This document shows, in pieces, positions 1,012 through 59,392 of a DNA stretch of 64,000 nucleotides; positions within the stretch are counted from its first letter, which is position 1; the number at the start of each line of letters is the position of its first letter. A model generated the notes under the pieces. That model saw only the letters and a program-made list of their open reading frames with translations, was not told the DNA's origin and searched no databases. The DNA is taken from the IMG/VR virus record IMGVR_UViG_3300045988_169460. One strand, written 5' to 3'. The translations under genes and the position numbers were made by a program. The stretch is from a virus.

Positions 1012-2829
1012 TTGGAACATATAACTAAACAAGAAGATGTAACAGTAACTAGAATAGTAAGCTCTTTAAATACTTTAGATGATGAAAATATGGTGGTAGT
1101 GTCCACTACAGAGCCAGAGAAGAAAAAAGATGGATTAATATGGGTTAATCCAAATCAAGAAGAAGCGGAAAAATTGGTTTATGTAGGGCATACAGTTGGG
1201 GACATTTATCCCATTAGTTATACAGAGTTAGATTCAGGTCAGTTAATATTAAATGGTCAGTTAATAAGCAGAGAAATATATGGGGTGTTATGGGATTGGT
1301 TGCAAAAACATCCTAGTTTAATAAAAACAGAAGTAGAGTGGAATACATATTTAGCATCAACAAATAATGTATGTTGCCCATATTTTAGTATGGGAACTAC
1401 TGAAACTAATTTTAGATTACCTAAATATAGCGGAGCATTTATTAGAGCTGATTCTGATATAACTAAAATTAATCAATTTAGTGAAGATACACAAAGAAAT
1501 ATTACAGGACAATTTTCAACTTATCGCACAAGTTGGGATGGTGGTACTGGAGAATTACTTTTTGGTGCAAATGGGGCTTTTGGAAAAATAGAAACTGGTA
1601 ATAATATGGACAGTATTCATCAAGAGTCTTCTGACAGACAACAGCAAATTGTAGATTTTGATGCATCACGTTCAGTAGGAGCAACCCATACAGGTGAAGA
1701 AGTAAAACCTAAATCAATAAATCAAATATGGGTTATTCAAGCTGTAGGAACTATTACTAATCAAACAAGTATTGATGTAAGTGCTATTCAAGAAGAAGTG
1801 CAACAATTAATGGATTTTGGGAATTATCAAGTAGCTTGCATTAAGGATAAATCCAATTATTTTTCAAGAGATAGTTTATTTACTTCAAACAAAACGTTTA
1901 TTGTTATCCCCAAGAATATGCGGATAAATATAAATGGAGAGGCTTATATAAGTACACGTAATGTCACTCTTAATACTTCAACATTAGGTGAAAATCTAGC
2001 GGGTAAAGATGTTTATATTTATGCCTTAGCAGGTTCTGGAACAGAGCCAGATTTTGTATTATCTTTAAACAGTACAGTTCCTACAGGATATACAGCAGAA
2101 AATAGTCGTAAAATAGGTGGGTTTCATTGTTTATGTAAAGATGTTGGGATTATAGAAGGGCATGCTTTGTCTGGATATGTTGCAGGGGATATCTTACCAG
2201 CAACAAGATGGGATTTAGAACATCGCCCCAAAGGAAGTCCAGAAGGATTTGCTTATGAAGAATTAACGAATTGTTGGATTGCAATTTATCTGCCTAGTTG
2301 GGACGGAACTAAATTAGTTAGTGTTTATAATGGAGTTATTGCTGATGGAAGTTCTGCTAAAAAATGGCATGGTGAAGCTTTTTATGAGCAATTTGCAAAA
2401 CAAGGAATGCGTTTAGTTTGGCGGCACGAATTTCAAATGGGAGCAAAAGGTTCTAATGAACAAACAAATATTCAAGGTTCATCTGACCCTAATACTACAG
2501 GTGGGCATATAGATACGGCTGGAAGAAGAATGATTAGTAATATAGGATTAGAAGATTGTTGTGGTGTGTTATGGCAATTTGCAATGGATTTAGGCTTTGC
2601 AGGCGGGTCTGGTTGGACAAATTCTGTTTATAACTCTACTGTAGACGATAGAAGTTATGGACAAACATATGGAACATTATATCGCTTGCTGTTGGGTTCT
2701 CGCTGGAGTGAGGGCGCGTATTGCGGTTCTCGTTCTGCTTATTGCGATGTTTCGTCGGCTTATGTGAATGTCGACGACTGCTCTTCTCGTGGTGCGTCTG
2801 AGCCGAGAATTGAAAATTTGAGAAACTAA
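1012..2829 (+). CDS. tail fibre protein, DGR target (collar-like N-terminal half, variable C-terminus)
   Basis: shares FRLPK / DTQRNITG / FDASRSVG.xHTGEEVKPK segment with ORF 8964-11759; last ~48 codons contain the VR matching the TR. Confidence 0.85.
   Translation: MEHITKQEDVTVTRIVSSLNTLDDENMVVVSTTEPEKKKDGLIWVNPNQEEAEKLVYVGHTVGDIYPISYTELDSGQLILNGQLISREIYGVLWDWLQKHPSLIKTEVEWNTYLASTNNVCCPYFSMGTTETNFRLPKYSGAFIRADSDITKINQFSEDTQRNITGQFSTYRTSWDGGTGELLFGANGAFGKIETGNNMDSIHQESSDRQQQIVDFDASRSVGATHTGEEVKPKSINQIWVIQAVGTITNQTSIDVSAIQEEVQQLMDFGNYQVACIKDKSNYFSRDSLFTSNKTFIVIPKNMRININGEAYISTRNVTLNTSTLGENLAGKDVYIYALAGSGTEPDFVLSLNSTVPTGYTAENSRKIGGFHCLCKDVGIIEGHALSGYVAGDILPATRWDLEHRPKGSPEGFAYEELTNCWIAIYLPSWDGTKLVSVYNGVIADGSSAKKWHGEAFYEQFAKQGMRLVWRHEFQMGAKGSNEQTNIQGSSDPNTTGGHIDTAGRRMISNIGLEDCCGVLWQFAMDLGFAGGSGWTNSVYNSTVDDRSYGQTYGTLYRLLLGSRWSEGAYCGSRSAYCDVSSAYVNVDDCSSRGASEPRIENLRN
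2686..2805 (+). repeat. DGR variable region (VR)
   Basis: aligns to 2977-3093; 18-19 mismatches all opposite TR adenines, plus a 3-nt insertion and 2 T-to-G differences. Confidence 0.85.
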
Positions 2830-2976: not shown

Positions 2977-3093
2977 TTGCTGTTGAGTTCTAACTGGAAT
3001 AATGGCACGAATTGCAGTTCTCGTTCAGCTAATTGCAATGATTCGTCAGCTAATGTGAATGTCAACAACTCTTCTCGTAGTACGTCTGATACG
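2977..3093 (+). repeat. DGR template region (TR)
   Basis: non-coding copy of VR rich in AAY codons, 148 nt after the target stop and 148 nt before the RT start. Confidence 0.85.
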
Positions 3094-3240: not shown

Positions 3241-4257
3241 ATGAAAAGAAAAGGAAATTTATGGACTAAAATAATAGACAAAAGCAATTTATATTTGGCT
3301 TTTGAGAAAGCTAAAAGACATAAAAGTTGGCAAAGAAAAGTTAAAATTATAGAAGCAAATTTAGATTATTATATTGAAAAGTTACAAAATGATTTGATAA
3401 CAGGGCAATATAAAACCGCTGAATATAAGTTAAAAACAATTTATGAGCCAAAGAAAAGAGATATTTATATTTTGCCATTTTATCCAGATAGGATAGTTCA
3501 TCACGCTATTATGAATGTTTTAGAGCCTATATAGGATAATAGATTTATTTATAATAGTTATGCTTGTCGAAAAAATAAAGGACAACATAAAGGTAGTATA
3601 AAATGTATGGAATACACTAGAAAATTTAAATATTGTTTGAAATGTGATATAAGTAAGTTTTATCCTTCTATTAATCACAGGCTTCTAAAGAAAGTGATAC
3701 GTAAAAAAATAAAATGTAAAAAGACTTTAAATTTATTAGATGAGATAATTGATAGCGTTGATACGCCAACAAATGTTCCTATAGGAAATTATTTAAGTCA
3801 GTGGTTTGGAAACTTATATTTAAATGAGTTAGATGTTTTTCTAAAGCAAGAGAATTGTGTAAAAAATTATTTAAGATATTGCGATGATTTTTTATTATTT
3901 TCTGATGATAAAACATATTTAAATAAAATGGCTAAAATAATAAATGAATATGTAGTTAATATTTTAGAATTAAAACTTAGCAAATGTGTTTTGTTTCCAA
4001 CAGCACAAGGAGTTGATTTTTTAGGATATAGACATTTCCATGCTGGTTATGTTTTGGTAAGAAAATCAACAGCTAAAAGAATGAAGCGTAGGATTAAAAG
4101 ACTAAAATATGAATTATTGAAAAATAAAATAAGTAAAGATAAAGCTTTATCTGTTGTGGCAAGTTTATCTGGATGGTTAAGATGGGTTAATAGTTACAAT
4201 TTAAGAATGTTTTTAGAATTAGAATCATTAAAAAAGGAATTAGGAGGAAACTCTTAG
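3241..4257 (+). CDS. DGR reverse transcriptase with in-frame TAG at 3532-3534 (338 codons if read through)
   Basis: IGNYLSQWFGNLYL (IGxxxSQ), YCDD box; conserved SYACRKNKG continues in frame after the TAG; adjacent to TR. Confidence 0.85.
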
Positions 4258-6054: not shown

Positions 6055-6251
6055 AACAGATAGAAAAAGTAAAGAAATTATATAAACCAAAATTTGAAAT
6101 AGTAAGAGCAGAGAAAGTAAAAGATAATTATATATTATTCTTAGATGATAAAAATATTATATTAGAAGAAGATGCTTTTAAATCATTATTTGAGCTTTAT
6201 AGTGCTTTAGTTTCTTATTATGATGTAAGAAAGGATGAAACAAATGATTGA
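6051..6251 (+). CDS. hypothetical protein
   Basis: ATGA overlap with upstream ORF. Confidence 0.5.
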   Translation: MKQIEKVKKLYKPKFEIVRAEKVKDNYILFLDDKNIILEEDAFKSLFELYSALVSYYDVRKDETND

Positions 6252-6939
6252 ATTATTCAATGGGAATTGTTTTGAAGTAATCGGGGGGGGGGCAGTAAAA
6301 GATAATAGTATAGATTGTATTATTACAGACCCTCCCTATAATGTTAGCAGAGAAACAAATTTTCATACTTTAAAGGGAGCTTTAAGAAATGGAATGGATT
6401 TTGGAGAATGGGATAAAGGATTTGACATAACAGGTTATATTAAGTTGTTTCCTAGAATTCTAAAAGAAAATGCAAATGTTGTTATATTTAATGCTTGGGA
6501 AAATTTAGGAGAAATAGCAAAAGTATGTAGAGAATTTAATATAGCTCCTAAAAGATGTTTAGTGTTAAGTAAATCAAATCCCGCTCCATTTAATAGAGAT
6601 AGAATGTTTGTTAATGATGTAGAATTTGCAATATGGGGAGTTTACAATTCTAAAAATAAACCTTCTAAATGGACATTTAACAGAGAAAATTTATTAGAAA
6701 AATGTGTGATTCCAACAACAGTGCAGTCTTCTAAATTACATCCAACAATGAAGGATGAGAAAGTAATAAATTATTTGTTGCGAGTTTTAACAAATGAAAA
6801 TGACTCAGTTTTAGATTTATTTATGGGGAGTGGCACTACAGGAGTTGCTTGTCGTAAATTAAAAAGAAATTTTATAGGCATAGAATTAGATACTAGGTAT
6901 TTTGAAGTAGCAAAACGTAGAATAGAGGAAATAAAATGA
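6235..6939 (+). CDS. DNA methyltransferase (N6-adenine/N4-cytosine, beta class) containing a G10 tract
   Basis: IITDPPYN motif IV near N-terminus, FMGSGTTGVAC motif I near C-terminus; G10 at 6283-6292. Confidence 0.85.
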   Translation: MKQMIELFNGNCFEVIGGGAVKDNSIDCIITDPPYNVSRETNFHTLKGALRNGMDFGEWDKGFDITGYIKLFPRILKENANVVIFNAWENLGEIAKVCREFNIAPKRCLVLSKSNPAPFNRDRMFVNDVEFAIWGVYNSKNKPSKWTFNRENLLEKCVIPTTVQSSKLHPTMKDEKVINYLLRVLTNENDSVLDLFMGSGTTGVACRKLKRNFIGIELDTRYFEVAKRRIEEIK

Positions 6940-7630: not shown

Positions 7631-8041
7631 TTGAGTGAGTATTTTGAGTTATTTTTAAAGAAAAACAATTTAATGTTTAATCAAAAGTTTCAGGTTTTGG
7701 ATTATGATGGAAAATATGCTGTTGGTAATGGGGCAAAATTTTGGATAGCAGATAATAAACTTCATTGTGATAATCCAGAGATGAATACTCGGCTTATTAT
7801 GTTAGAACTATTTGCTGGTAATTGTAGTGTAAAACAACTTCCTTATTATCCCACAAATGGTGATGTATATTTTTATATTTATATGGACGGAAGCAATAAT
7901 CAGGGAGTTGTATCTAAGGGAGTATTTTATGGTAATTTAGTAGACCAGCTTTTGCGAAGTTTAGGAAAATGTTATAGAACTAGAAATGAAGCAGAAGAGC
8001 ACTTAAAAGAGGATGTTAATTTTTTATTAAAAGGAAGATGA
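7631..8041 (+). CDS. hypothetical protein (paralog of 51213-51626 and 60959-61372)
   Basis: shared C-terminal GKCYRTRNEAEEHL-type segment. Confidence 0.6.
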   Translation: MSEYFELFLKKNNLMFNQKFQVLDYDGKYAVGNGAKFWIADNKLHCDNPEMNTRLIMLELFAGNCSVKQLPYYPTNGDVYFYIYMDGSNNQGVVSKGVFYGNLVDQLLRSLGKCYRTRNEAEEHLKEDVNFLLKGR

Positions 8042-8299: not shown

Positions 8300-8620
8300 A
8301 TGACACTAGAAGATATTGCAGTAATGAGTACAAAAGTTCCACAAGAGTTGTTAATTTCTTATATGCAAGATACCTCTTTAATTTATCTTATAGCGATTCT
8401 TGCTAGCTTCTCTTTATTGATATCTCTTATTATTTTTCTAGGATGGCAAGTATACGATGGAGTAACAGCATTGAATGAGGTGCAGGCAATTAGTGCCATG
8501 ATTTTTTTAATAGGTATTTCTCTTTTTACTATTGGAGCTTTTTTTCAGGCTTTTGAAAGTTTTATTTTTTATTTTAATTGCTATTTTAATCCATTAATTA
8601 TGATATTACAGGCGGTGTAA
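8300..8620 (+). CDS. membrane protein
   Basis: two to three long hydrophobic segments. Confidence 0.55.
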   Translation: MTLEDIAVMSTKVPQELLISYMQDTSLIYLIAILASFSLLISLIIFLGWQVYDGVTALNEVQAISAMIFLIGISLFTIGAFFQAFESFIFYFNCYFNPLIMILQAV

Positions 8621-8625
8621 AAATA

Positions 8626-8847
8626 ATGTATAAAGTTTGGGCAGTAATAGATGGGGAAAAATACTGGGTAACAAAATTTATAAATGTTGCAGGGTTTCTT
8701 AAAATTCATTTTACACAAGATGTAACAGATAATGTAGTTATATATCCCAATAAGGATATAGCAAGACGAGCATTAATAGCTACTTTAGACCATATACCAG
8801 AAGTTGTAGAAGTGGGAATGTTGGAAATTTCCTATAAAAATAATTAA
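8626..8847 (+). CDS. hypothetical protein
   Basis: ORF packed on same strand. Confidence 0.5.
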   Translation: MYKVWAVIDGEKYWVTKFINVAGFLKIHFTQDVTDNVVIYPNKDIARRALIATLDHIPEVVEVGMLEISYKNN

Positions 8848-8855
8848 AAAAAAGG

Positions 8856-8884
8856 TTGACAAAAATCCAAAAGTATGCTATAAT
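8856..8884 (+). promoter_or_regulatory. sigma-A-type promoter upstream of second tail fibre
   Basis: TTGACA, 17-nt spacer, TGcTATAAT. Confidence 0.65.
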
Positions 8885-8912: not shown

Positions 8913-8940
8913 GGGGAAGCTCTAAGTGGGCTTCCTTTTT
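8913..8940 (+). terminator. leader hairpin plus T5 between promoter and tail-fibre start
   Basis: GGAAGC (8915-8920) pairs GCTTCC (8930-8935), then TTTTT. Confidence 0.4.
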
Positions 8941-8963
8941 AGCATATTGAATGGAGGTTTATA

Positions 8964-11759
8964 ATGGCTCAAACAAAAATTTGGGATGGAACTAAATGGG
9001 TTGATTATATAATGTCAAGTCAAATTAAATTGCCATTAGGTTCAATAGGATTTTCGTTAGATGGGATATTACCAGAAGGTGCAATAGCGGCTACAGGATT
9101 AGAACTTAGCAGAGAAGTTTATAAAGATTTATGGGGATTTGCACAAAAAGGTGGAGAAACTCGTTTAATAAGTGAAGAAGCTTGGCAAGCAGAGTTAGCG
9201 GCAAATGAGGGAAGATTTTGTAGATATTATAGCACTGGAAATGGTGCTACTACCTTTAGAATTCCTTATATCGCTTGTTATTTAAGTGGTACAGCAGAAG
9301 CAGAAAAAGTTGGAACTTGTGTAACAGATACACAAAGGAATATCACAGGTTCAATAGGAGAAGTATTTGCTCCTAATCCACCAAATACTACTGGTGCTTT
9401 TACCGAAGAAGTATCAAGAAGAATACATGTTCTAAACGATTCTGTTGAAAATCATATTTGGAAAATAAACTTTGATGCCTCTCGAGTTGTAGGAGCAGAA
9501 CATACAGGTGAAGAAGTAAAACCAAAAACGGCATATGTGTTATATTATATACAAGCTTTTAGTACAATCATTAATTCTGGAACATTAGATATTGGAGAGT
9601 TATTAGAGCACGTTGAAACTTTAGAAAAAAGTGTTGGCTATCCATTAGGGGCTATTTATCCTACTTTATATGGAAGTATAGATGTTGGAAGTCTTCCTTG
9701 TTTGGGAGGAGAATATAATAGAGAAACTTATAAAGATTTGTGGGAATTGGTTCAGACAAAAGAAGGGTATGTAGTAACTGAATCTGAATGGCAAGCATTA
9801 AATACAGCAAATGAAGGAAACGTGCCTAAATTTTCTAGTGGTGACGGAAGCACAACTTTTAGATTGCCTAAGATTACTAAATTTTTAAGTGGTGCAGAAT
9901 CAATAAGCGAAGTTGGAACTTATGTAACAGACACACAACGAAACATTACAGGTTCTATTGCGATGGGGGTTTGGTCTTCTCCCTCGGGGTGTTTTTATGC
10001 AAATTCTACAAGTAATATGAAGCATGGTCGTGTTCAAGAAACGGCAGGGTCTTGTGCCTTTGATGCTTCTCGTTCAGTAGGCACAGAACATACAGGTGAA
10101 GAAATAGCCCCAAAACATATAAAAGCTTTATATCAAATTAAAGCGTATGGAGTAGTATCAAACACTGGAAATATTGATGTTACTAATTTAGCAAAAGATG
10201 TGGAGCAGTTAAATACTACAGTTCAAACTGAAAAAATTAATCATCAAATTAAACCATTTACAGATTTAAGTCAAATAGGATTAATTAAGGGAACAGAGAC
10301 ATTAAAATCTATTGGTGAGGCTTTGCCAGAAAATTCTCAAATAAGTTATCAGATAGAAATTGGAAGCGGGCATAATAGTATAGAATATCCTCAAATTAAA
10401 GGATATTTTAATATGAAAAAGGATACAACATATTGTTATTGTGTTTTTGCAACAGAATCTAATACGAAAATGTTTCAAAGAAGTTTTGATTACCGAGATG
10501 CTTTTTATATTGATGCAAATTGGTCAGTAATGGCAGACAATAATAAATTGAGTATGCCCTCTAATAACAAGATAATTATTAACTTAAAAAATCAGGGAGA
10601 TTCCTGGACAGCTCCTTGTGATGGTTATATATGGGGAATGAAAGTTGGAGGTAGTAATGTTGTAAATAGTTGGTTAAATGTTTGGGACTCCACTAATGCA
10701 GATACAACTAATTATGGCACTTTAATTTATTGTGATTATGGTCAACCATATATTAATTTATGTGGTAATTTAGCTATACGAAAAGGTCAGACTGTTTATT
10801 TTAATTGGAGTAATAATTGTAGAGTATATTTTTATCCAGCTTTAAATGCTAATATGCCTACTTATGGCGAAGATGTAAGAATTTATTTTAAAGCTGTAGA
10901 TTCAAATAATAATATTATTAGTGGAGCTTCTTTTAAAATTTCTATAGCAGATAGCAGTGGGGATATTGTTATTCTTTCAGGAAAAACATCCAGTGATGGA
11001 CGTTATTTAGTTCCAGAAGATAAATGGCTATCTTTAACTGGCTTAGAAGATAATCAATTAATCACTTGTACTATGACTAAAGGAAATGCTACTGGTTCAG
11101 CAGAATATAGAATTTCTTTATTTAAAGAAAATATGATTTATGATTTGCCAATAACTCTTGTTGAAGGGGGGGGGGTAATTCATAATATAGATTTAGAACT
11201 TGCAGTAAGTGGTCAGATTAGATGCAATAAAACATCAGGAGATGGTAATACACAAGCATATGCTGGTGATGAAATTATTTTAACTGCTGTACCTGATGTG
11301 GGTGTTGAGTTTTTAAATTGGCAAATTATTAATCTTACCACATTGGAGAAAGAAATAAAGATAGAGAATCCTCTCACTTATATTATGCCTGATAGTGATA
11401 TCAGAGTAGCGGCTGATTTTAATGACGACCCTATTGACATTCCTATAGACCCCTCATCACCTAGTCCTGCGGTTGATGTTTATTTTAAAGTATTAACTAA
11501 TGGAACTACTACAATGGGTTATAATGTAACACTTTATTCCCCAAAAGGTAATGTTATTTGGCAAGGTGTAACAAATTCACAGGGCTATGTACAATTAGAC
11601 CCTACTCTTAGTTTCTATGCAGAAGATGGTATGACACTTCGGGCAATGAAAGGAAGCAAGTTTACTCAGATAACGGTTAATAAAGACAGTTTTAGCACAG
11701 ATAAGGCAGATAGTAATAATGCGATTTGGTTTACTCTTACTGTTGGTGAGATGGGATAA
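8964..11759 (+). CDS. tail fibre protein with two collar-like repeats and a G10 tract
   Basis: two copies of FR(I/L)P...DTQRNITGSI...FDASR.VG.EHTGEE(V/I).PK; G10 at 11166-11175 encoding GGG. Confidence 0.8.
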   Translation: MAQTKIWDGTKWVDYIMSSQIKLPLGSIGFSLDGILPEGAIAATGLELSREVYKDLWGFAQKGGETRLISEEAWQAELAANEGRFCRYYSTGNGATTFRIPYIACYLSGTAEAEKVGTCVTDTQRNITGSIGEVFAPNPPNTTGAFTEEVSRRIHVLNDSVENHIWKINFDASRVVGAEHTGEEVKPKTAYVLYYIQAFSTIINSGTLDIGELLEHVETLEKSVGYPLGAIYPTLYGSIDVGSLPCLGGEYNRETYKDLWELVQTKEGYVVTESEWQALNTANEGNVPKFSSGDGSTTFRLPKITKFLSGAESISEVGTYVTDTQRNITGSIAMGVWSSPSGCFYANSTSNMKHGRVQETAGSCAFDASRSVGTEHTGEEIAPKHIKALYQIKAYGVVSNTGNIDVTNLAKDVEQLNTTVQTEKINHQIKPFTDLSQIGLIKGTETLKSIGEALPENSQISYQIEIGSGHNSIEYPQIKGYFNMKKDTTYCYCVFATESNTKMFQRSFDYRDAFYIDANWSVMADNNKLSMPSNNKIIINLKNQGDSWTAPCDGYIWGMKVGGSNVVNSWLNVWDSTNADTTNYGTLIYCDYGQPYINLCGNLAIRKGQTVYFNWSNNCRVYFYPALNANMPTYGEDVRIYFKAVDSNNNIISGASFKISIADSSGDIVILSGKTSSDGRYLVPEDKWLSLTGLEDNQLITCTMTKGNATGSAEYRISLFKENMIYDLPITLVEGGGVIHNIDLELAVSGQIRCNKTSGDGNTQAYAGDEIILTAVPDVGVEFLNWQIINLTTLEKEIKIENPLTYIMPDSDIRVAADFNDDPIDIPIDPSSPSPAVDVYFKVLTNGTTTMGYNVTLYSPKGNVIWQGVTNSQGYVQLDPTLSFYAEDGMTLRAMKGSKFTQITVNKDSFSTDKADSNNAIWFTLTVGEMG

Positions 11760-24457: not shown

Positions 24458-26122
24458 TTGTTTCATCAAAGATTCTTTAAATTAACTATTGTCAATAAAG
24501 AGAATGTTGATAGATTTTTTGAGGAATATGAACGAGCGAAACAAATTTTCTTTGACTTTGAAACTTCTGGATTAGATGTAAGATATAAGGGGAAAGATTA
24601 TGCAGTAGGATTAACAATAGCCTTTGAAGATAGTGTCAGTAAGGAAGTATATTATATTCCTTTCAGGCACTATTTTGAAGGTAGCTATATTGGTTGTGGG
24701 AGACTTGATTACCGTAAAAACACTGCGGTTTTTGATGATGCCAAAAATTTTCCTGATTTTTTACCAGAAAAGTTTTCAGGAGAATATTATAATATGGATA
24801 TTGTTGATTTTATGGAACGATTGAAGCCTTTAATGGAAAATGGTGGGAAAGAGTATATAGCCCATCATATTTCATTTGACTTACATTTATTTGCAAATGA
24901 AGGTGTAGATATAGTAAAAGTGTTTGAAACAAATACTTTTACTGATACACAAATAGCTGTACATACTTTAGATGAAGAACAAGAGAAGAATTTAGAAGCA
25001 GTAACTGAAACAATTTTCTCTGTAAAAAAATCTCATTTTAAAGATACTATTATGACAGTTACTAAAGAGGAAAAGAAACTTTTGGGATTAGCTTCTAATA
25101 GTAATGCTAGTTTTCAACACGTTCAGATTCCAATAGGAGCACAATATTCAGCAGAAGATGTATATTTTATGAAAGAAATGTATGAACCAATTCTTAATGC
25201 GTTAAGAGAAGATGGTGGTTACGAATATTTTAGAGAAGTACGAATGCCATATATGAAAGTTTTGTGGAAAATGGAACGTAATGGAATCAAAGTTGACATA
25301 GAAAAACTTGAAGGTATGATAAAATTAGCAGAAGAAAAATTGGAAGAATTAACATACAAAATATATGAAGTAGTAGGAGCTAAATTTAATATTAATAGTG
25401 GTCAACAACTGTTTGAAATATTATATGGTTTTAAAAAGAAATTAAAGGATAGGAAAACAGGGGAATATAGAGAATCTTTTAATGAGGATTTAGTAGCATT
25501 AAATTTTGGTTTTCAGCCTATAGCATGGACAGATGGTGGAAAATCAAGAGATATAGCATTAAGAACGCCAAAGACAGATAAAGATGCATTAAAAAAATTA
25601 TTAAGACAAACTCCTAAAAGAGAAGATGGGCATAAATTAATTAAACTTCTACAAGATTATTTTAAATTAACAAAATTGTATACAGCATTTATGCTAGGTA
25701 TAAAAGAAAAAATGTATTGTGATGGAAAAGTACATCCAAGCTTCAACCAAAATGGAACATCATCATTTAGGTTAAGTTGTTCTGAACCGAACTACCAACA
25801 GCTTCCTAAGCCTTTAGAAGAGCCTAAAGATGGTGAAGATAGAAGTTACTATGATTTTTGGATACAATTTGAAATAAGAAGTTTAATGATAGCTGATAAT
25901 GAAGATGAAGTAATTGTTGCGGCAGATTATCATGCTCTGGAAAAGTTTTTAACAGCACATTTTTCAAAAGACCCATTGTTGATTAAAATGCTAAAAGAGA
26001 AACTTGACCCACATGGGACAGTAGCAACTATTATTTTTCCAGAATTAGCAGATGCAGACCCAAATTCAATTAAGAAATTAGCACCACATAAAAGAAATGT
26101 GGCTAAGACTGTAGGTTTCGCT
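24458..26122 (+). CDS. polA: family A DNA polymerase, exon 1 (3'-5' exonuclease and palm/fingers)
   Basis: FFDFETSGLD ExoI motif; ends KRNVAKTVGFA inside motif B. Confidence 0.85.
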
Positions 26123-26330
26123 CAAATCTAGGGTGAAGTAAAATCCCTCTCAAAACGGTGAAAGCCTAACAGGTCAATACCGTGCCGAACTCTGTGAAAA
26201 CAGCGGTGTAGAGACTTATAATGTATCGGCTATGTTTAAACATAAATCAATCGAATACATTTAATGGGGGATAGGAGCAAGCTCCTAAAGGTATAGTCCG
26301 ACACTCTTGGCAACAGGAGAAAACAGAATG
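26123..26330 (+). mobile_element. ORF-less group I intron 1 in polA
   Basis: P1: exon UUCGCU pairs GGUGAA (26132-26137) with U:G at the splice site; P10: AUCUA (26126-26130) pairs exon UAGAU (26332-26336); R-like GTAGAGACTTA, S-like GGTATAGTCC; ends in G. Confidence 0.75.
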
Positions 26331-26690
26331 GTAGATTATGGCGGTTCAAAAATAGCGGTAGCAAGAAATCTAGAAATAGATGAAAAGACCGCACAAGAAT
26401 ATATAGATAGGTATTTTGAAGGTTTTGCAGGATTAAAAAAATATGATAGAGATTTAATTCAATTTGCTAGAAAGAATGGTTATATAGAAACACTATTTTC
26501 TGGGCATAAACGTCACTTGTGGGGGATAAATTCCCAAGATGGTAGAACACGCTCATACTATGAACGATTAGCAGTTAATTCAAAATCACAAGGGGCGGCG
26601 GCAGATTGCACAACATTAGCACAGATAGATGTGGATAATGATGTAGTATTAAAATCTATTGGTGCAAGACAAATACTTAATGTACACGAT
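26331..26690 (+). CDS. polA: family A DNA polymerase, exon 2
   Basis: VDYGGSKIAVARNL completes motif B; ends ...ILNVHD inside motif C. Confidence 0.85.
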
Positions 26691-27007
26691 AAACTTTAGT
26701 CAAATAACTTGTCGTGTTTAAACTCTTCGATATGCTGGAACGCAAAAATACAGTATTACCAAAGAGTGACAATATACTGTATATCACGAAAGTGTGTAGC
26801 CAATCAGCAGGGAGGAAATGAGAGCATTTCACCCTCACAGACTAACAAAAGCATAGAATAGTAGGAACTGCACATTACTACTATTTGAGAAGTGAGTAGA
26901 GTACGGCTTTGTTGAGATACAAAGTGGGTTGACATCCTTAAATGGAAGCGGGGAGGCATAGTGCAGATGTATGATATAGTCGAGTGTGTTTTTAAGCATA
27001 CGTTATG
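26691..27007 (+). mobile_element. ORF-less group I intron 2 in polA
   Basis: P1: exon ACACGAU pairs GUCGUGU (26711-26717) with U:G at the splice site; Q AATCAGCAGG, R CACAGACTAACA, S TGATATAGTCG elements; ends in G. Confidence 0.75.
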
Positions 27008-38895: not shown

Positions 38896-40737
38896 ATGAA
38901 AAATGGATATACGTTATTTCTTTCTGGTGTTGAACCAGAAGAAAATTTCTATACTGCAATAGATGTTACCTCTAGTCTATTGCAGTCTTATTGGTATATA
39001 AAGCGGCGTGGAAAAGATAAAATTGTAGAGCGTTTTGATAAAGTTAAGAAAAATTCTTTGTTAATTGATAGTGGAGCACATACTTTTCTCACCTTAGCAG
39101 AATATCAAGATAAGACAGTAGATTATTGGGAAGAGTATATAAAAGGATATATAGCTTTTGTAAGAAAACATAGAGAAAAAGTATTTGCTTGTGTTGAAAT
39201 GGATATAGATACTTTAGTAGGAACAGAACAAGTAAATAAATGGAGAGAAGAATACTTTCATTCTTTAGAGGAAGAGGGCATTTCTGTTATTTATGTTTAT
39301 CATGCAGAAAAGGGATTGGAAGAGTGGGAAAGAATGTGTAAAACATATTCCTATGTTGGGTTCTCTTACAATGAATTTGAAGATGCTATTTTAATTGATA
39401 AATTATTTGAAATAGCAATGGAATATAAAACTAAAGTACATGGTTTTGCAGTATCGGGATATAGAGAATTATTAAAACATGAGTATTATACAAGTGACAG
39501 TACAAGTTGGATTACAGGAGCTCAATATGGAGAATTAAACTATTTTGAAGGTGGGAAATTAAAACGGCTCACAAAAGAAAAATGGAAAAATGAATATTAT
39601 GCAAAAATACTTGATTTATGTACAAGTAAAAAGTTATTAGAAGCAGAAGCTCCTTATGAATTAATGCGTATTAGTGCTTTAAGTTATAAGAAATTAGAAG
39701 AGCATGTAAATGATATATTTAGAGGCAAAAGATATTGGATTGGAAGAAAGGAAGTGTCTAAAGTAGCGAGTAAGGGAAATTTACCGCCAGTAGAGTGGTT
39801 TTCAACTGATATGGAAGATTGGCAAGAATGGGCACAGAAATTAAATATAGACACGAATCTTCCTGATGAAGCAGGTAAATCATTAATTGTTGCTTGTTAC
39901 AATTTTGTGACAGATAATCCTATTATAAATGAGTATCCTCTCGAAGAATTAATTGACTTATGTGGACTTTTTGGTGATAAGAAGTCGAATACTCTTACTA
40001 AGTGCCGAAAAGCCCTTAAAGAGCACTTTACAGCTCTCTTAAAGGGTAGTATGGATTTATCCACTTTGACAGAAGAAGAAGTAGAAGAGAAAAAAAATGT
40101 AGTTCCAAAAGAGCGGGAAGAGTATGTTCAAGAAAAAGAGTATGTAGAATGTACTGTTAGCAAGGAAGAGTGTCAAGGTTTATTAAAAGGGTTATTAACT
40201 TCTGGTGTGACAGATGAAGCAGAGAAAGCTTTAATTGAACAGGGAATAGAGCCTATTTATGATGAGAATGGAAACATTAAAGCAGGTATTAAACGAATAA
40301 AGAAAAGAAAATCTTTAAGTTCAAGTGTGATGCCAGAGTTAAGTTGCAATATTTGTACTAAAGCACGGAGATGTCCTTTATATGAAGAAGGAATGCTTTG
40401 TGCTTATAATAAAATGTTTAAGCAATTTGATACAAGAAATCCCGAAGATGTAGTAGATGCTATGAGCAGTATTGCAAATTTAAGTTTAGAAAGATTATCA
40501 AGGGCTGTGACATTTGAAAAATTAGATGGTGGCTTAAATACTAAAGAGGTAACAGAGACAATGGCAGAAGCATGGAAATATCTTGAAAAGATACAAGAAA
40601 TTCAAACAAAGAGTGATAAAGTTATAGCAGAGCGTAGAGTTGTAACTTCTTCTAACGGCGATGTAGAAGTAAGAGAAAGTGTAACAGGAAATCCGCAAGG
40701 TTTATTGTCTGAGATTCTAAAAACAAAAAAAAGTTGA
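38896..40737 (+). CDS. dpdA: DpdA-like DNA-guanine transglycosylase with ~300-aa C-terminal extension
   Basis: LLIDSGAHTF resembles the TGT/DpdA catalytic DSGGFQ segment; adjacent to queC and near queD/queE. Confidence 0.55.
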   Translation: MKNGYTLFLSGVEPEENFYTAIDVTSSLLQSYWYIKRRGKDKIVERFDKVKKNSLLIDSGAHTFLTLAEYQDKTVDYWEEYIKGYIAFVRKHREKVFACVEMDIDTLVGTEQVNKWREEYFHSLEEEGISVIYVYHAEKGLEEWERMCKTYSYVGFSYNEFEDAILIDKLFEIAMEYKTKVHGFAVSGYRELLKHEYYTSDSTSWITGAQYGELNYFEGGKLKRLTKEKWKNEYYAKILDLCTSKKLLEAEAPYELMRISALSYKKLEEHVNDIFRGKRYWIGRKEVSKVASKGNLPPVEWFSTDMEDWQEWAQKLNIDTNLPDEAGKSLIVACYNFVTDNPIINEYPLEELIDLCGLFGDKKSNTLTKCRKALKEHFTALLKGSMDLSTLTEEEVEEKKNVVPKEREEYVQEKEYVECTVSKEECQGLLKGLLTSGVTDEAEKALIEQGIEPIYDENGNIKAGIKRIKKRKSLSSSVMPELSCNICTKARRCPLYEEGMLCAYNKMFKQFDTRNPEDVVDAMSSIANLSLERLSRAVTFEKLDGGLNTKEVTETMAEAWKYLEKIQEIQTKSDKVIAERRVVTSSNGDVEVRESVTGNPQGLLSEILKTKKS

Positions 40738-45517: not shown

Positions 45518-46687
45518 ATGTTAAATTGCAAAATTTGCGGTAATGAAATTAGTGGAGCTTATACAATTTATCAAAAAGACGGAGTAGAATATCCAGCACA
45601 CATTGAATGTGTCGAAGAAAACAAGCAACATTGTGATGAGTGCAATAAGTTTTTTGATAGAGAAGATTTAAAAACTACAACATTAGGAAACCATTATTGC
45701 CCAGATTGTTTGTCTGAAAAAACTGTAGTTTGTGGAAAATGCGGTAAACACGTAGAAAATGCACCATTGAAAAGAGTAAATAGTGTATCTTATTGTCAAG
45801 AGTGCTTTGAACAGAAATGGGTATATTGTGTAAAATGTGGTAAAAGGGTTTTAAGAAGCAGAGCAAAAAATTTAAATAATACACATTATTGCGCTTCATG
45901 TGCTAGTTCTGTTGTTAAGGTAGAAAATTATAGTTACAAACCTACCCCTATATTTTGTGGTGTAGATAGTTCTCGTTATTTTGGTATTGAAGTCGAAACT
46001 GAGGGCAGAAAAAGTAATCTTTATGCAGAAGAAATTATTGGAGGTTCAAAAATTTTCTATGCAAAACATGATGGCAGTTTAAATAATGGAATTGAATTTG
46101 TAAGTCATCCTTGCACTCTTAACTATTGGAGAGAGGAATCCAAGCTTGATGAATTTTGTAAAAGAGCGATTGGTTTAGGATTTAACTCTCATAAAACTAC
46201 TTCTTGTGGATTGCATGTTCATATTACTAAATCTACAGTAGAAAGGGAAGCTTTTGAAAAAGTGCTTCTGTTTTTAAGCAATAACTGGGATGATGTGGTG
46301 AAATTTACACGCCGTAAAAGTTCCAGCATTAATAGATGGGCGGCTAATAATTTAGGGGATGCACCAATGATTAAAACTTGTACTCTTGCACAAAAAATGA
46401 AATTAGTAAAAGAGTATTCTTCTGGCAGTCGTTATGTAGCAGTAAATGAAACATCTAAGACATATGAATTCCGTATTTTTAGAGGAACTTTAAAACCTGA
46501 AACTATTTTAGCTTGCATTGAGTTTTGTGATGCTCTTATCAATTTATGTGCTAGTTTGCCTTTTGCAAACATTGAAACAGCTAATTTTAATACTTTAATA
46601 GAATTTGCAAAACCTAAAGGATGCTATAAAGAGCTTGTAGAATATTGGGAAACTCGAACAATGAAGAAGAATGTTGTTATTGAATAA
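45518..46687 (+). CDS. amidoligase (glutamine-synthetase-like carboxylate-amine ligase family) with four N-terminal zinc-ribbon repeats
   Basis: repeated CxxC...CxxC units; YFGIEVETE, KHDGSLNNGIEFVSHP, GLHVHI, YEFRIFRGTL core. Confidence 0.65.
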   Translation: MLNCKICGNEISGAYTIYQKDGVEYPAHIECVEENKQHCDECNKFFDREDLKTTTLGNHYCPDCLSEKTVVCGKCGKHVENAPLKRVNSVSYCQECFEQKWVYCVKCGKRVLRSRAKNLNNTHYCASCASSVVKVENYSYKPTPIFCGVDSSRYFGIEVETEGRKSNLYAEEIIGGSKIFYAKHDGSLNNGIEFVSHPCTLNYWREESKLDEFCKRAIGLGFNSHKTTSCGLHVHITKSTVEREAFEKVLLFLSNNWDDVVKFTRRKSSSINRWAANNLGDAPMIKTCTLAQKMKLVKEYSSGSRYVAVNETSKTYEFRIFRGTLKPETILACIEFCDALINLCASLPFANIETANFNTLIEFAKPKGCYKELVEYWETRTMKKNVVIE

Positions 46688-57025: not shown

Positions 57026-58480
57026 ATGCAAGAATTTGAATTTGTCGATAATGGAGTATTTGAAAAAGACGGTGTAGAATATAGGAATAAAGGGCAGGTT
57101 GAAATTGAAGATAAACTGTTCTACCTTTTCGTCACTTCTGATGTGCCGAATTTCGCCCCTCTTTATTTAAAAGACACCAAAAGATTTGTCGTTCTTGTTG
57201 TAACTGGCGATAAAGCTAGAGAGGCTACAGAAGAAGAACGTGTAATACTACAATATAAATGCAGAAGATGCATAAATTGTGGAGAAGTAATCACTAAAGA
57301 AGATTGGATTTGGATAGACGGAAATATCTTATGCGCTGATTGTTTTGAAAATTTATTGGGTGAAGAAATTGAAATATGTGATATTTGTGGATGCGCCCAT
57401 TTTTCTGATAATGATAGAATGATATACATTCAAGAAGAAGAGCAATTAATTTGTGATGAATGCGCTGAACGTCATTACTTTCAATGTAGTAATTGCGGAA
57501 CATGGACTAGAAATCCGTTACAAATGACTGATGGAGATTACATATGTAACGAATGCTTCGAAACAGAGGACTATTATATATGTGACGATTGCGGAAATGT
57601 TATAGACCCTGATACTGACGGTGTAATAATACGTAGTGACAGTGTTTATTGTGAGGATTGTGCTTCTGAACACGCAGACCCTAATGAAGAATATATACAC
57701 GAATATGGCTATTCCCCACGCATACTGTTTAATGAAGGAGAGGAATTGAATAGCTATCCGAAAAAAGGGGAAAGATATTTCGGCTTGGAAATTGAAACAG
57801 AATGTACTGGAGATATTACAGAAGTGATAGAAGATGAAGATTACTATTGGGCAACGGATGATAGTAGTATTCAATGTTTAAATGAGGGCTGTGCCGCTGA
57901 AATAGTAACGCAACCGACAACATTTAAAGCATGGCAGAATTACAGTGATACATTTTTTGATGCTTTAGAAAACAACTGCGTTACTAATAGTTCTTGCGGA
58001 TTACATATTCACGTCAATAGGGATAGTGTATCAGATGAAACGATTGAAAAAGCAATATTATTTATTAGTAAACATTATGAAAAAGTAAGAATATTTGCAG
58101 ATAGGTTGATGTGCAATATATGCAGTTATGCAGGGAATAATTTAGAGCGTTATAAAGACTACTATCCTAATAGCAAATCTATTAAGGAAGAAATAAATAT
58201 TGTAAAAAAGGGGAAAGATAATGTACGGTATAAATATTTAGCTATAAATATCTTGCATAAAAATACATATGAATTTCGCATATTTAATAGCACTGTAAAT
58301 AAGGATAGAATACTGGCATATATAGAATTTGTGGATGCATTGCTTGAGTACTGTTCAGAGAGTAACTTTTTACAAATTTATAAGTCTAATTTTTGGGACT
58401 TAGCGGAATACGCAAAGGGGAAAAAGAAATATAAACATTTAATGCATAGATTTTATGATATAATAAGTGAAGTATACTAG
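57026..58480 (+). CDS. amidoligase (GS-like carboxylate-amine ligase family) with four N-terminal zinc-ribbon repeats
   Basis: repeated CxxC...CxxC units; YFGLEIETE, DDSSIQ...AEIVTQP, GLHIHV, YEFRIFNSTV core; paralog of 45518. Confidence 0.65.
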   Translation: MQEFEFVDNGVFEKDGVEYRNKGQVEIEDKLFYLFVTSDVPNFAPLYLKDTKRFVVLVVTGDKAREATEEERVILQYKCRRCINCGEVITKEDWIWIDGNILCADCFENLLGEEIEICDICGCAHFSDNDRMIYIQEEEQLICDECAERHYFQCSNCGTWTRNPLQMTDGDYICNECFETEDYYICDDCGNVIDPDTDGVIIRSDSVYCEDCASEHADPNEEYIHEYGYSPRILFNEGEELNSYPKKGERYFGLEIETECTGDITEVIEDEDYYWATDDSSIQCLNEGCAAEIVTQPTTFKAWQNYSDTFFDALENNCVTNSSCGLHIHVNRDSVSDETIEKAILFISKHYEKVRIFADRLMCNICSYAGNNLERYKDYYPNSKSIKEEINIVKKGKDNVRYKYLAINILHKNTYEFRIFNSTVNKDRILAYIEFVDALLEYCSESNFLQIYKSNFWDLAEYAKGKKKYKHLMHRFYDIISEVY

Positions 58481-59147: not shown

Positions 59148-59189
59148 ATGAATACTATTATAGTGTGGGGGGGGGTAGCCTATGAGTGA
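59148..59189 (+). CDS. 13-codon leader ORF containing a G9 tract
   Basis: ATG 9 nt after AGGAG; MNTIIVWGGVAYE; its TGA overlaps the GTG start of the next ORF. Confidence 0.3.
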   Translation: MNTIIVWGGVAYE

Positions 59190-59392
59190 TAGATAAATAT
59201 TATCAATTAGACAACATGGCTATTTATGTAAAATCATTAGTAGTATATAATAGTATTAAGTATTATATATTAGATATATTTATTGATAATATTTATACAA
59301 AACAATATAATATAAAAACTAATGATATATTATTGACAGAAGAACATATTGTTATTAATGAAGTAAAGTTTATTAGAAACTATTATCAATAA
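59186..59392 (+). CDS. hypothetical protein (very AT-rich)
   Basis: GTG start overlapping the leader stop (GTGA). Confidence 0.4.
   Translation: MIDKYYQLDNMAIYVKSLVVYNSIKYYILDIFIDNIYTKQYNIKTNDILLTEEHIVINEVKFIRNYYQ

Follow-up and report, generated by a model that had tools for sequence, protein, structure and literature searches.

The tail-fibre gene and its G10 tract

The viral DNA analyzed here is a stretch of 64,000 nucleotides (IMG/VR record IMGVR_UViG_3300045988_169460), which is referred to in its entirety as the window. Within it a homopolymer of ten guanines (G10) lies inside a tail-fibre gene, where it very probably acts as a heritable switch of fibre length. The features of this gene on which the analysis depends are listed below.

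8964..11759, + strand: tail-fibre open reading frame (ORF) of 931 amino acids (aa), assigned by PHROG, Pfam and tblastn
11166..11175, + strand: G10 homopolymer, the candidate switch, encoding Gly735-737 and the first base of Val738
10875..11162, + strand: beta-sandwich domain termed Ig1 (residues 638-733, starting VRIYFKAVDS), supported by AlphaFold2 (AF2), Foldseek and the ends of many homologues
11176..11756, + strand: distal module lost on frameshift (residues 738-931), recognized by Pfam and a PDB match

The ten Gs at 11166-11175 (+ strand) stand in the context gttgaaGGGGGGGGGGtaattcat and are read GGG GGG GGG G followed by TA, that is, as codons 735-737 and the first base of codon 738. 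The surrounding translation is ...PITLVE-GGG-VIHNIDLE..., and both sides of the tract are in frame (ON) in this genome. A first-pass annotation of the window had placed a GGG tripeptide encoded by this tract at about residue 735 of the 931, and had predicted an immediate TAA on loss of one G and a stop three codons on following gain of one G. Sequence and translation agree on all of these points. The G9 version reads GGG GGG GGG TAA and gives a 737-aa product, while the G11 version reads GGG GGG GGG GGT AAT TCA TAA and gives a 740-aa product with the end GGGGNS.

With respect to base composition, the window has a G+C content of 30.7% and contains only four G runs of at least 6 (G6, G9, G10 and G10), with lengths 7 and 8 unrepresented; C runs of at least 6 were not found anywhere in it. 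Under a first-order Markov model of the window, G runs of at least 9 were observed three times against 0.039 expected, and those of at least 10 twice against 0.008 expected. The codon GGG accounts for 16% of Gly codons in the window ORFs (CCC for 6% of its codon family), and two of the three GGG tripeptides in these ORFs are encoded by pure G runs. The excess of G runs over the Markov expectation, taken together with the rarity of the GGG codon, indicates that the fibre tract is real and not a product of chance.

The fibre is laid out as two N-terminal tail-collar-like repeats, central beta domains, and three C-terminal beta-sandwich modules on short linkers. PHROG tail-fibre families matched the N-terminal 470 residues, which include both collar-like repeats, with E values down to 6e-23; Pfam Collar gave a weak match, and tblastn with the fibre matched annotated tail fibres of many phages. 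The distal module consists of a B-repeat-like domain at residues 761-822 (Pfam Flg_new_2, InlB B-repeat-like, E=1.1e-8), a Pro-rich linker (822-836) and a macroglobulin (MG)/transthyretin-like domain at 837-931, of which residues 837-909 matched Pfam bMG3 at an E value (7.6e-6) below the Pfam cut-off. A weak sequence match of the distal part to alpha-2-macroglobulin MG domains in PDB was also observed.

Modelled in full as a monomer, the fibre gave a poor overall AF2 result (predicted local distance difference test, pLDDT, 45), which was usable for residues 540-733 only. The model contained two confident beta-rich domains, at 540-627 (pLDDT 82-90) and 638-733 (pLDDT 70-88), with a dip at 628-637, and confidence collapsed from residue 735. 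Foldseek analysis of the confident part returned generic transthyretin-like beta-sandwich matches only, and the distal-only AF2 model was left out of the fold search owing to its poor quality. As the confidence of the Ig1 model ends at the tract, the tract encodes a linker right behind a folded domain, and truncation at this position strips the B-repeat-like and MG/transthyretin-like modules from the fibre. The first-pass annotation had included two similar repeats, beginning VRIYFKAVDS and VDVYFKVLTN, in the C-terminal part which would be lost. This was correct for VDVYFKVLTN, which begins at residue 837, but VRIYFKAVDS, which begins at residue 638, precedes the tract, so that its domain stays in the truncated fibre.

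Tract length in near-identical genomes

Tract lengths in relatives were taken from public assemblies (ENA and Logan) and not from reads; relatives' loci are designated by L numbers and fibre proteins by P numbers. Fibre homologues were abundant on contigs of ~93-101 kb from human-gut metagenomes. An 18-mer scan of metagenome contigs gave 120 loci, mostly chance matches, of which only L052, L082, L091 and L106 were real.

As read on DNA, the tract was G8 in L154 and L155, G10 in the window and L131, G11 in L156, L157 and L082, and G12 in L153. The loci with G8, G10, G11 and G12 differed from the window by 2-7 mismatches over 6.2 kb (99.9% identical). A G9 tract was found in L004 and L005, which come from two ENA assemblies (~95 kb) and are 98.2% identical to the window. 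The fibre protein on these two contigs, P0005 (737 aa, 92% identical), ends ...ITLVEGGG, which matches the prediction for G9. Tract-length heterogeneity, which the first-pass annotation had named as a check to be made, is therefore present across public assemblies, with lengths of G8-G12 in genomes that are 98-99.9% identical. By run or assembly accession, the tract was G8 in ERR14033591 and ERR14030602, G9 in ERZ28643458 and ERZ27269842, G10 in SRR18498149, G11 in SRR23984152 and SRR29825802, and G12 in SRR34061404; the SHAL23-1 series carried G11 in the CAGTT sublineage described below.

The 579 nucleotides 3' of the tract were identical in the window (G10), L004 (G9), L082 (G11) and L131 (G10), so that only the tract differs among those four genomes. 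Identical flanks combined with a varied tract indicate that length change outpaces substitution at the kilobase scale by orders of magnitude. A comparison of nonsynonymous with synonymous polymorphism (pN/pS) in the distal module between ON genomes and those with an out-of-frame tract (OFF) was uninformative, as there were zero substitutions.

The same range of states was observed at the protein level. Of the 31 members in the 90%-identity cluster of P0001, 15 were listed; these included near-identical proteins that ended in ...EGGG (G9), ...EGGGG (G12), ...EGGGNS (G8) or ...EGGGGNS (G11), each followed directly by a stop, as well as full-length ones. The set of sequences retrieved contained 118 distinct fibre proteins with the tract; 84 of them terminate at it and the other 34 continue past it, and tract lengths among relatives fall on both sides of the in-frame value.

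In every OFF locus which reached far enough (16/16, from three sublineages) the distal frame was open over 109-210 codons, in DNA of 30% G+C. Open distal frames in these loci indicate OFF states which are recent or reversible and not decaying pseudogenes. Within one series of samples, several of them yielded the same G11 allele, on 13 contigs in total; another G11 allele recurred on 6 contigs. Such recurrence makes random assembly error unlikely. Truncated-fibre genotypes were found on near-complete contigs of 93-98 kb from several studies. Because of these contigs, and because some relatives end after the same domain (see below), a viable short-fibre state almost certainly exists.

The tract across the family and a poly-C tract at the next linker

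Three sublineages carried the tract at the same linker, each with several lengths, with distinct 3' flanks (TAATT, AGTAATT and CAGTT) and with distinct distal modules. The sublineage Gn-TAATTCAT is the window's type and is in frame at G10. For the sublineage Gn-AGTAATTCAT the in-frame lengths are G8 and G11; protein ends imply lengths of G7-G11, and G9 and G10 were confirmed on DNA in L143-L145. The third, Gn-CAGTTCAT, is in frame at G10, with G9-G11 read on DNA and G8 and G12 implied by protein ends. Interrupted tract alleles were rare (e.g. GGRAVHN in P0063 and P0152).

In a fourth lineage the first linker reads PPK and is without poly-G, and a poly-C tract is found at the second linker. In L132 the C11 tract (8504-8514) leads to the end ...STPPPIT followed by a stop, and the last MG-like domain goes on in another frame. 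Relatives end in PPIT or PPPPIT at a stop, or in the third frame, and the ends of P0004, P0007, P0008 and P0138 imply further poly-C lengths. One locus, L001, carries both a G10 and a C9 tract (7878-7886), both in frame, with a fourth module beyond. The fibres of L003 and of P0062, P0069, P0083 and P0093 end naturally right after the Ig1-type domain, and such natural ends indicate that short fibres of this layout are an ordinary, functional design.

The end of P0010 (...LDLAVGG, on a 3.8-kb contig) was considered as another tract and was rejected; P0136 reads AVGGQIKC at this position, and the P0010 end is probably that of the contig.

Variation of other kinds was also observed in the fibre gene. 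The two collar-like repeats in the N-terminal half of the fibre (8964-10250) vary among relatives by deletion or duplication via the repeats as well as by cassette swaps (P0003, P0006, P0009, P0135 and P0141). One extreme form of the fibre, of 194 aa and present on 12 contigs, joins residue ~80 to ~815, and may be real or may be an assembly collapse.

Other variable tracts and the fibre promoter

Two further poly-G tracts are present in the window, together with an A tract and expression signals in front of the fibre gene.

6283..6292, + strand: second G10 tract, codons 17-20 of a DNA methyltransferase ORF (6235-6939), ON in this genome
59167..59175, + strand: third tract, G9, within a 13-codon upstream ORF (59148-59189)
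8846..8853, + strand: A8 tract directly 5' of the -35 box of the promoter for the fibre gene, where an UP element would lie
8856..8884, + strand: sigma-70-type promoter, TTGACA-17-TATAAT with an extended -10 TG, matching the consensus at 12/12 positions, 5' of the fibre gene
8913..8942, + strand: hairpin (stem of 10 bp, then a U run) in the leader that separates the promoter from the fibre ATG

The methyltransferase belongs to the beta class (N6_N4_Mtase, E=1e-33) and its G10 tract lies just before the DPPY motif. In relatives this tract was 9, 10, 11 or 12 nucleotides long, and where it is out of frame the gene is called as an N-terminally truncated product of 181 aa. To judge from these lengths, the methylase looks phase-variable, as has been reported for phage BPP-1. 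An exact look-up of the 234-aa methylase found no such protein on record, probably as gene callers had chosen another start. The TGA that closes the upstream ORF with the G9 tract shares bases with the GTG start codon (59186) of a 68-aa gene (59186-59392), and in ten related loci the tract was G9, G10 or an interrupted G6AGG. This tract may tune translational coupling or the spacing of the Shine-Dalgarno sequence. All three poly-G tracts thus vary in length among relatives, and the presence of several variable tracts in one genome makes the fibre tract one member of a set of contingency loci.

With respect to the fibre promoter, the A tract was A8 in the window, A9 in L155 and L156, and A10 in L131, L153 and L154. 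The leader hairpin resembles a terminator, and the layout of promoter and putative leader terminator recalls that of late genes controlled by antitermination.

A diversity-generating retroelement on the other fibre

The window also contains a diversity-generating retroelement (DGR) associated with a separate, Mtd-like fibre.

2686..2784 (variable repeat) and 2977..3075 (template repeat), + strand: DGR repeats, the variable repeat lying at the end of the Mtd-like ORF 1012-2829
3241..4257, + strand: DGR reverse transcriptase, with an in-frame TAG at 3532-3534 (codon 98)

The ORF at 1012-2829 matched Pfam mtd_2nd (E=2e-19). The two repeats are 81% identical, with mismatches at adenines of the template repeat. 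The reverse transcriptase of the window reads EPI-stop-DNRF, while that of L004 reads EPIWDNRF (TGG) within an intact 338-aa RVT_1 protein. Given the in-frame TAG, the DGR of this particular genome is probably inactive. Recoding of TAG was considered as the cause of the apparent stop and is unlikely, as 14 of the 75 ORFs terminate in TAG and the window was found to lack tRNA genes. The first-pass annotation had credited the phage with two independent ways to diversify host recognition. The DGR repeats and their Mtd-like target are real, and the proposal of two such ways, with host recognition as their presumed object, holds for the lineage; it holds less clearly for the genome in the window, with its TAG codon.

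A proposed fibre-length switch and its alternatives

We consider it very likely that heritable slipped-strand variation at the G10 tract toggles the gene between a long and a short fibre. The tract would be a hypermutable contingency locus: when phage DNA is replicated, slipped-strand mispairing would insert or delete Gs far more often than point substitutions arise. As the tract encodes the Gly linker between Ig1 (638-733) and the distal module (738-931), lengths of 3n+1 (7, 10, 13) give the long 931-aa fibre, and other lengths give a short fibre of ~737-741 aa with a clean end at the domain boundary. Both collar-like repeats, the central domains and Ig1 remain in the short fibre, as does the virion-attachment region, while the tip modules (B-repeat-like and MG/transthyretin-like) are absent from it.

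The phage population would then be a heritable and reversible mix of long- and short-fibre genotypes, with both forms of the fibre occurring in virions. Since the fibres of a virion would stem from all the genomes present in the infected cell, a newly switched genome would be packaged with fibres of the parental type, and phenotype would run one cycle behind genotype. Most likely the switch would alter binding by the fibre tip, for example to a host surface glycan or other ligand, with a possible effect on adsorption or host range. An adaptive role in receptor recognition is plausible.

Several points weigh against such a switch. The AF2 models of the distal part of the fibre were of low confidence in both the whole-fibre and the distal-only runs. 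All tract lengths come from assemblies, and errors of sequencing or assembly at a run such as G10 could account for some of them. The distinction between ON and OFF phenotypes could also be blurred if RNA polymerase or ribosomes slip on this run. Finally, the in-frame alleles (34 of 118, 29%) are near the one third expected if length were frame-neutral, and so do not point to net selection in favour of the long fibre.

This last proportion is also what would be seen at a neutral mutational hotspot, that is, a slippery Gly linker followed by dispensable decoration, where ON and OFF states drift without adaptive value. The neutral explanation is further favored by relatives such as L003 which are without any distal module, and by the rare interrupted alleles of P0063 and P0152. 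However, the distal frame was intact in every OFF genome examined, and a pure tract has been kept in three diverged sublineages although the GGG codon is rare. An analogous poly-C tract lies at the next linker in another lineage, and the same genome carries two more poly-G loci at positions typical of switches. We therefore regard neutral drift as unlikely, although it is the alternative which best survives the evidence.

A second alternative is that the length differences are sequencing or assembly artefacts and that the true genomes are all G10. Homopolymers of 10 nucleotides are indeed error-prone and the evidence is drawn from assemblies, which nevertheless report the majority path. The five length states (G8-G12) go beyond plus or minus one, the same alleles were recovered on 6 and on 13 independent contigs, ENA and Logan assemblies of separate studies agree (e.g. 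L004 and L005), and all three tracts vary while their flanks are otherwise identical, which together make this explanation highly improbable.

Slippage at the level of expression, by RNA polymerase or ribosome, would have each genotype produce a fixed mixture of long and short fibres and may exist as an added layer, since G GGG GGG fits the formally slippery heptamer X XXY YYZ and the distal part consists of Ig-like/beta-sandwich add-on modules of the kind for which frameshift-appended domains are a known theme (Fraser 2006, as cited in PMC8008677), but as the primary explanation it has very little to recommend it, as polymorphism was seen directly in DNA, a single frame covers both parts of the fibre in the window, as in 34 of the 118 alleles, so that no frameshift is needed, and no stimulatory RNA structure was found 3' of the tract (fold of 11176-11275, z = -0.47 versus shuffles).

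The slipped-strand switch at the fibre tract may in turn be part of a wider scheme. Homopolymer switches at fibre linkers (poly-G at linker 1, poly-C at linker 2) could produce short, medium and long fibres from one gene, and together with the DGR and the phase-variable methylase could constitute a multi-layer bet-hedging kit that tracks the phase-variable surfaces and restriction systems of the gut host. We offer this extension tentatively and lean slightly towards doubting it. If it is true, hundreds of public human metagenomes already record its ON and OFF states.

The phage lineage and its further genes

Among INPHARED phages, megablast found no match to the fibre gene or to 24 kb of the window, and the phage consequently has no close cultured relative. 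The nearest cultured relative was Bacillus phage BCD7, at 30-44% aa identity (helicase, PolA and DpdA-like protein). A search of genome contigs with the fibre protein found no relative, and hence no clue as to a host or prophage.

Several further genes of the window were noted. At 38896-40737 lies a 613-aa queuine tRNA-ribosyltransferase/DpdA-like protein (PHROG_887, E=7e-54) which is 33% identical to the BCD7 protein; homology suggests 7-deazaguanine modification of the phage DNA. The genes at 45518-46687 and 57026-58480 encode paralogous proteins with zinc-ribbon or LIM-like N-termini and Amidoligase_2 domains. In a family-A DNA polymerase ORF (24458-26699, 557 aa), the C-terminal end aligned with no more of the 381-position Pfam DNA_pol_A profile than positions 58-217, and the polymerase may be split or interrupted.

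The lineage is prevalent in the human gut, where many cohorts carry it and ON/OFF polymorphism is naturally abundant. As public gut metagenomes show the switch states, phase variation on the phage side can be tested in the gut from existing read data, with per-sample spectra of tract length, time series and correlation with host strains as the readouts. With respect to annotation, "two-ORF" or truncated calls of the fibre and methylase genes in this lineage should be taken as switch states and not as pseudogenes or assembly errors.

Comparison with known systems

The closest parallel is found in Fletchervirus phages of Campylobacter, which have tracts of 7-11 Gs in receptor-binding-protein genes and form mixed populations (Sorensen 2021, Cell Rep 35:109214, as described in 10.1101/2025.10.21.683753). 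As in those phages, the G tract described here is located inside a fibre or receptor-binding gene of a phage with low G+C content, and a change in its length shifts the frame. The sequence features of the Fletchervirus type are all present: a G tract of at least ~7 in a fibre coding sequence, near-identical genomes which differ in its length, and a switch between full-length and truncated products. In contrast to Fletchervirus, the phage is unrelated and uncultured and comes from the human gut. In addition, its tract is placed at an inter-domain linker so that only distal modules are lost, and its relatives have a second (poly-C) switch at the next linker.

In phage BPP-1 of Bordetella, a methylase gene with a poly-G tract is reported alongside a DGR that acts on the Mtd fibre (Liu et al. 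2004, as cited in 10.1101/2025.10.21.683753). The present lineage likewise has a DGR on an Mtd-like fibre together with poly-G in a DNA methylase gene, while phage family and host differ and the reverse transcriptase in the window has a nonsense codon. We know of no report of poly-G in a fibre gene of BPP-1. For PB1-like phages, poly-G in a baseplate gene has been described.

The contingency loci of T2 and T4 are mostly runs of at least 6 bases in the defence-evasion genes agt and rIIA, and simple repeats are under-represented in coliphage tail fibres (Gomez, Barrick and Waters 2025 preprint, 10.1101/2025.10.21.683753). Reversible frameshifts by polymerase slippage at simple repeats, read as bet-hedging, are common to T2/T4 and to the switch proposed here, which differs in being a 10-nucleotide G run in a fibre. 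The proposed mechanism and the tract lengths are also those of bacterial poly-G/C contingency loci (Campylobacter, Haemophilus, Neisseria, Bordetella) and of phase-variable methyltransferases, and as in bacteria the tracts lie early in a methylase gene and inside genes of surface interaction. Unlike the bacterial loci, the present tracts are virus-borne, and a lag of one generation from genotype to virion phenotype would be expected.

Two isoforms with and without C-terminal beta-sandwich add-ons are also produced by the programmed frameshifts which append Ig-like domains (Fraser et al. 2006) and by the 10A/10B capsid proteins of T7 and K1F. Those events are translational and of fixed ratio, whereas the change here is in DNA and is heritable. 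Programmed diversification of the fibre tip is likewise achieved by the invertible fibre segments of Mu (Gin) and P1 (Cin) and by DGRs, although these act by site-specific inversion or by retrohoming mutagenesis and not by homopolymer slippage.

To our knowledge, poly-G phase variation of phage receptor-binding proteins has been shown experimentally in Campylobacter phages only. The comparison of genomes presented here gives good support to the view that the known poly-G device of the Campylobacter phages also operates in a gut phage, where its lineage, its habitat, its placement at an inter-domain linker and the poly-C linker switch of its relatives would be new.

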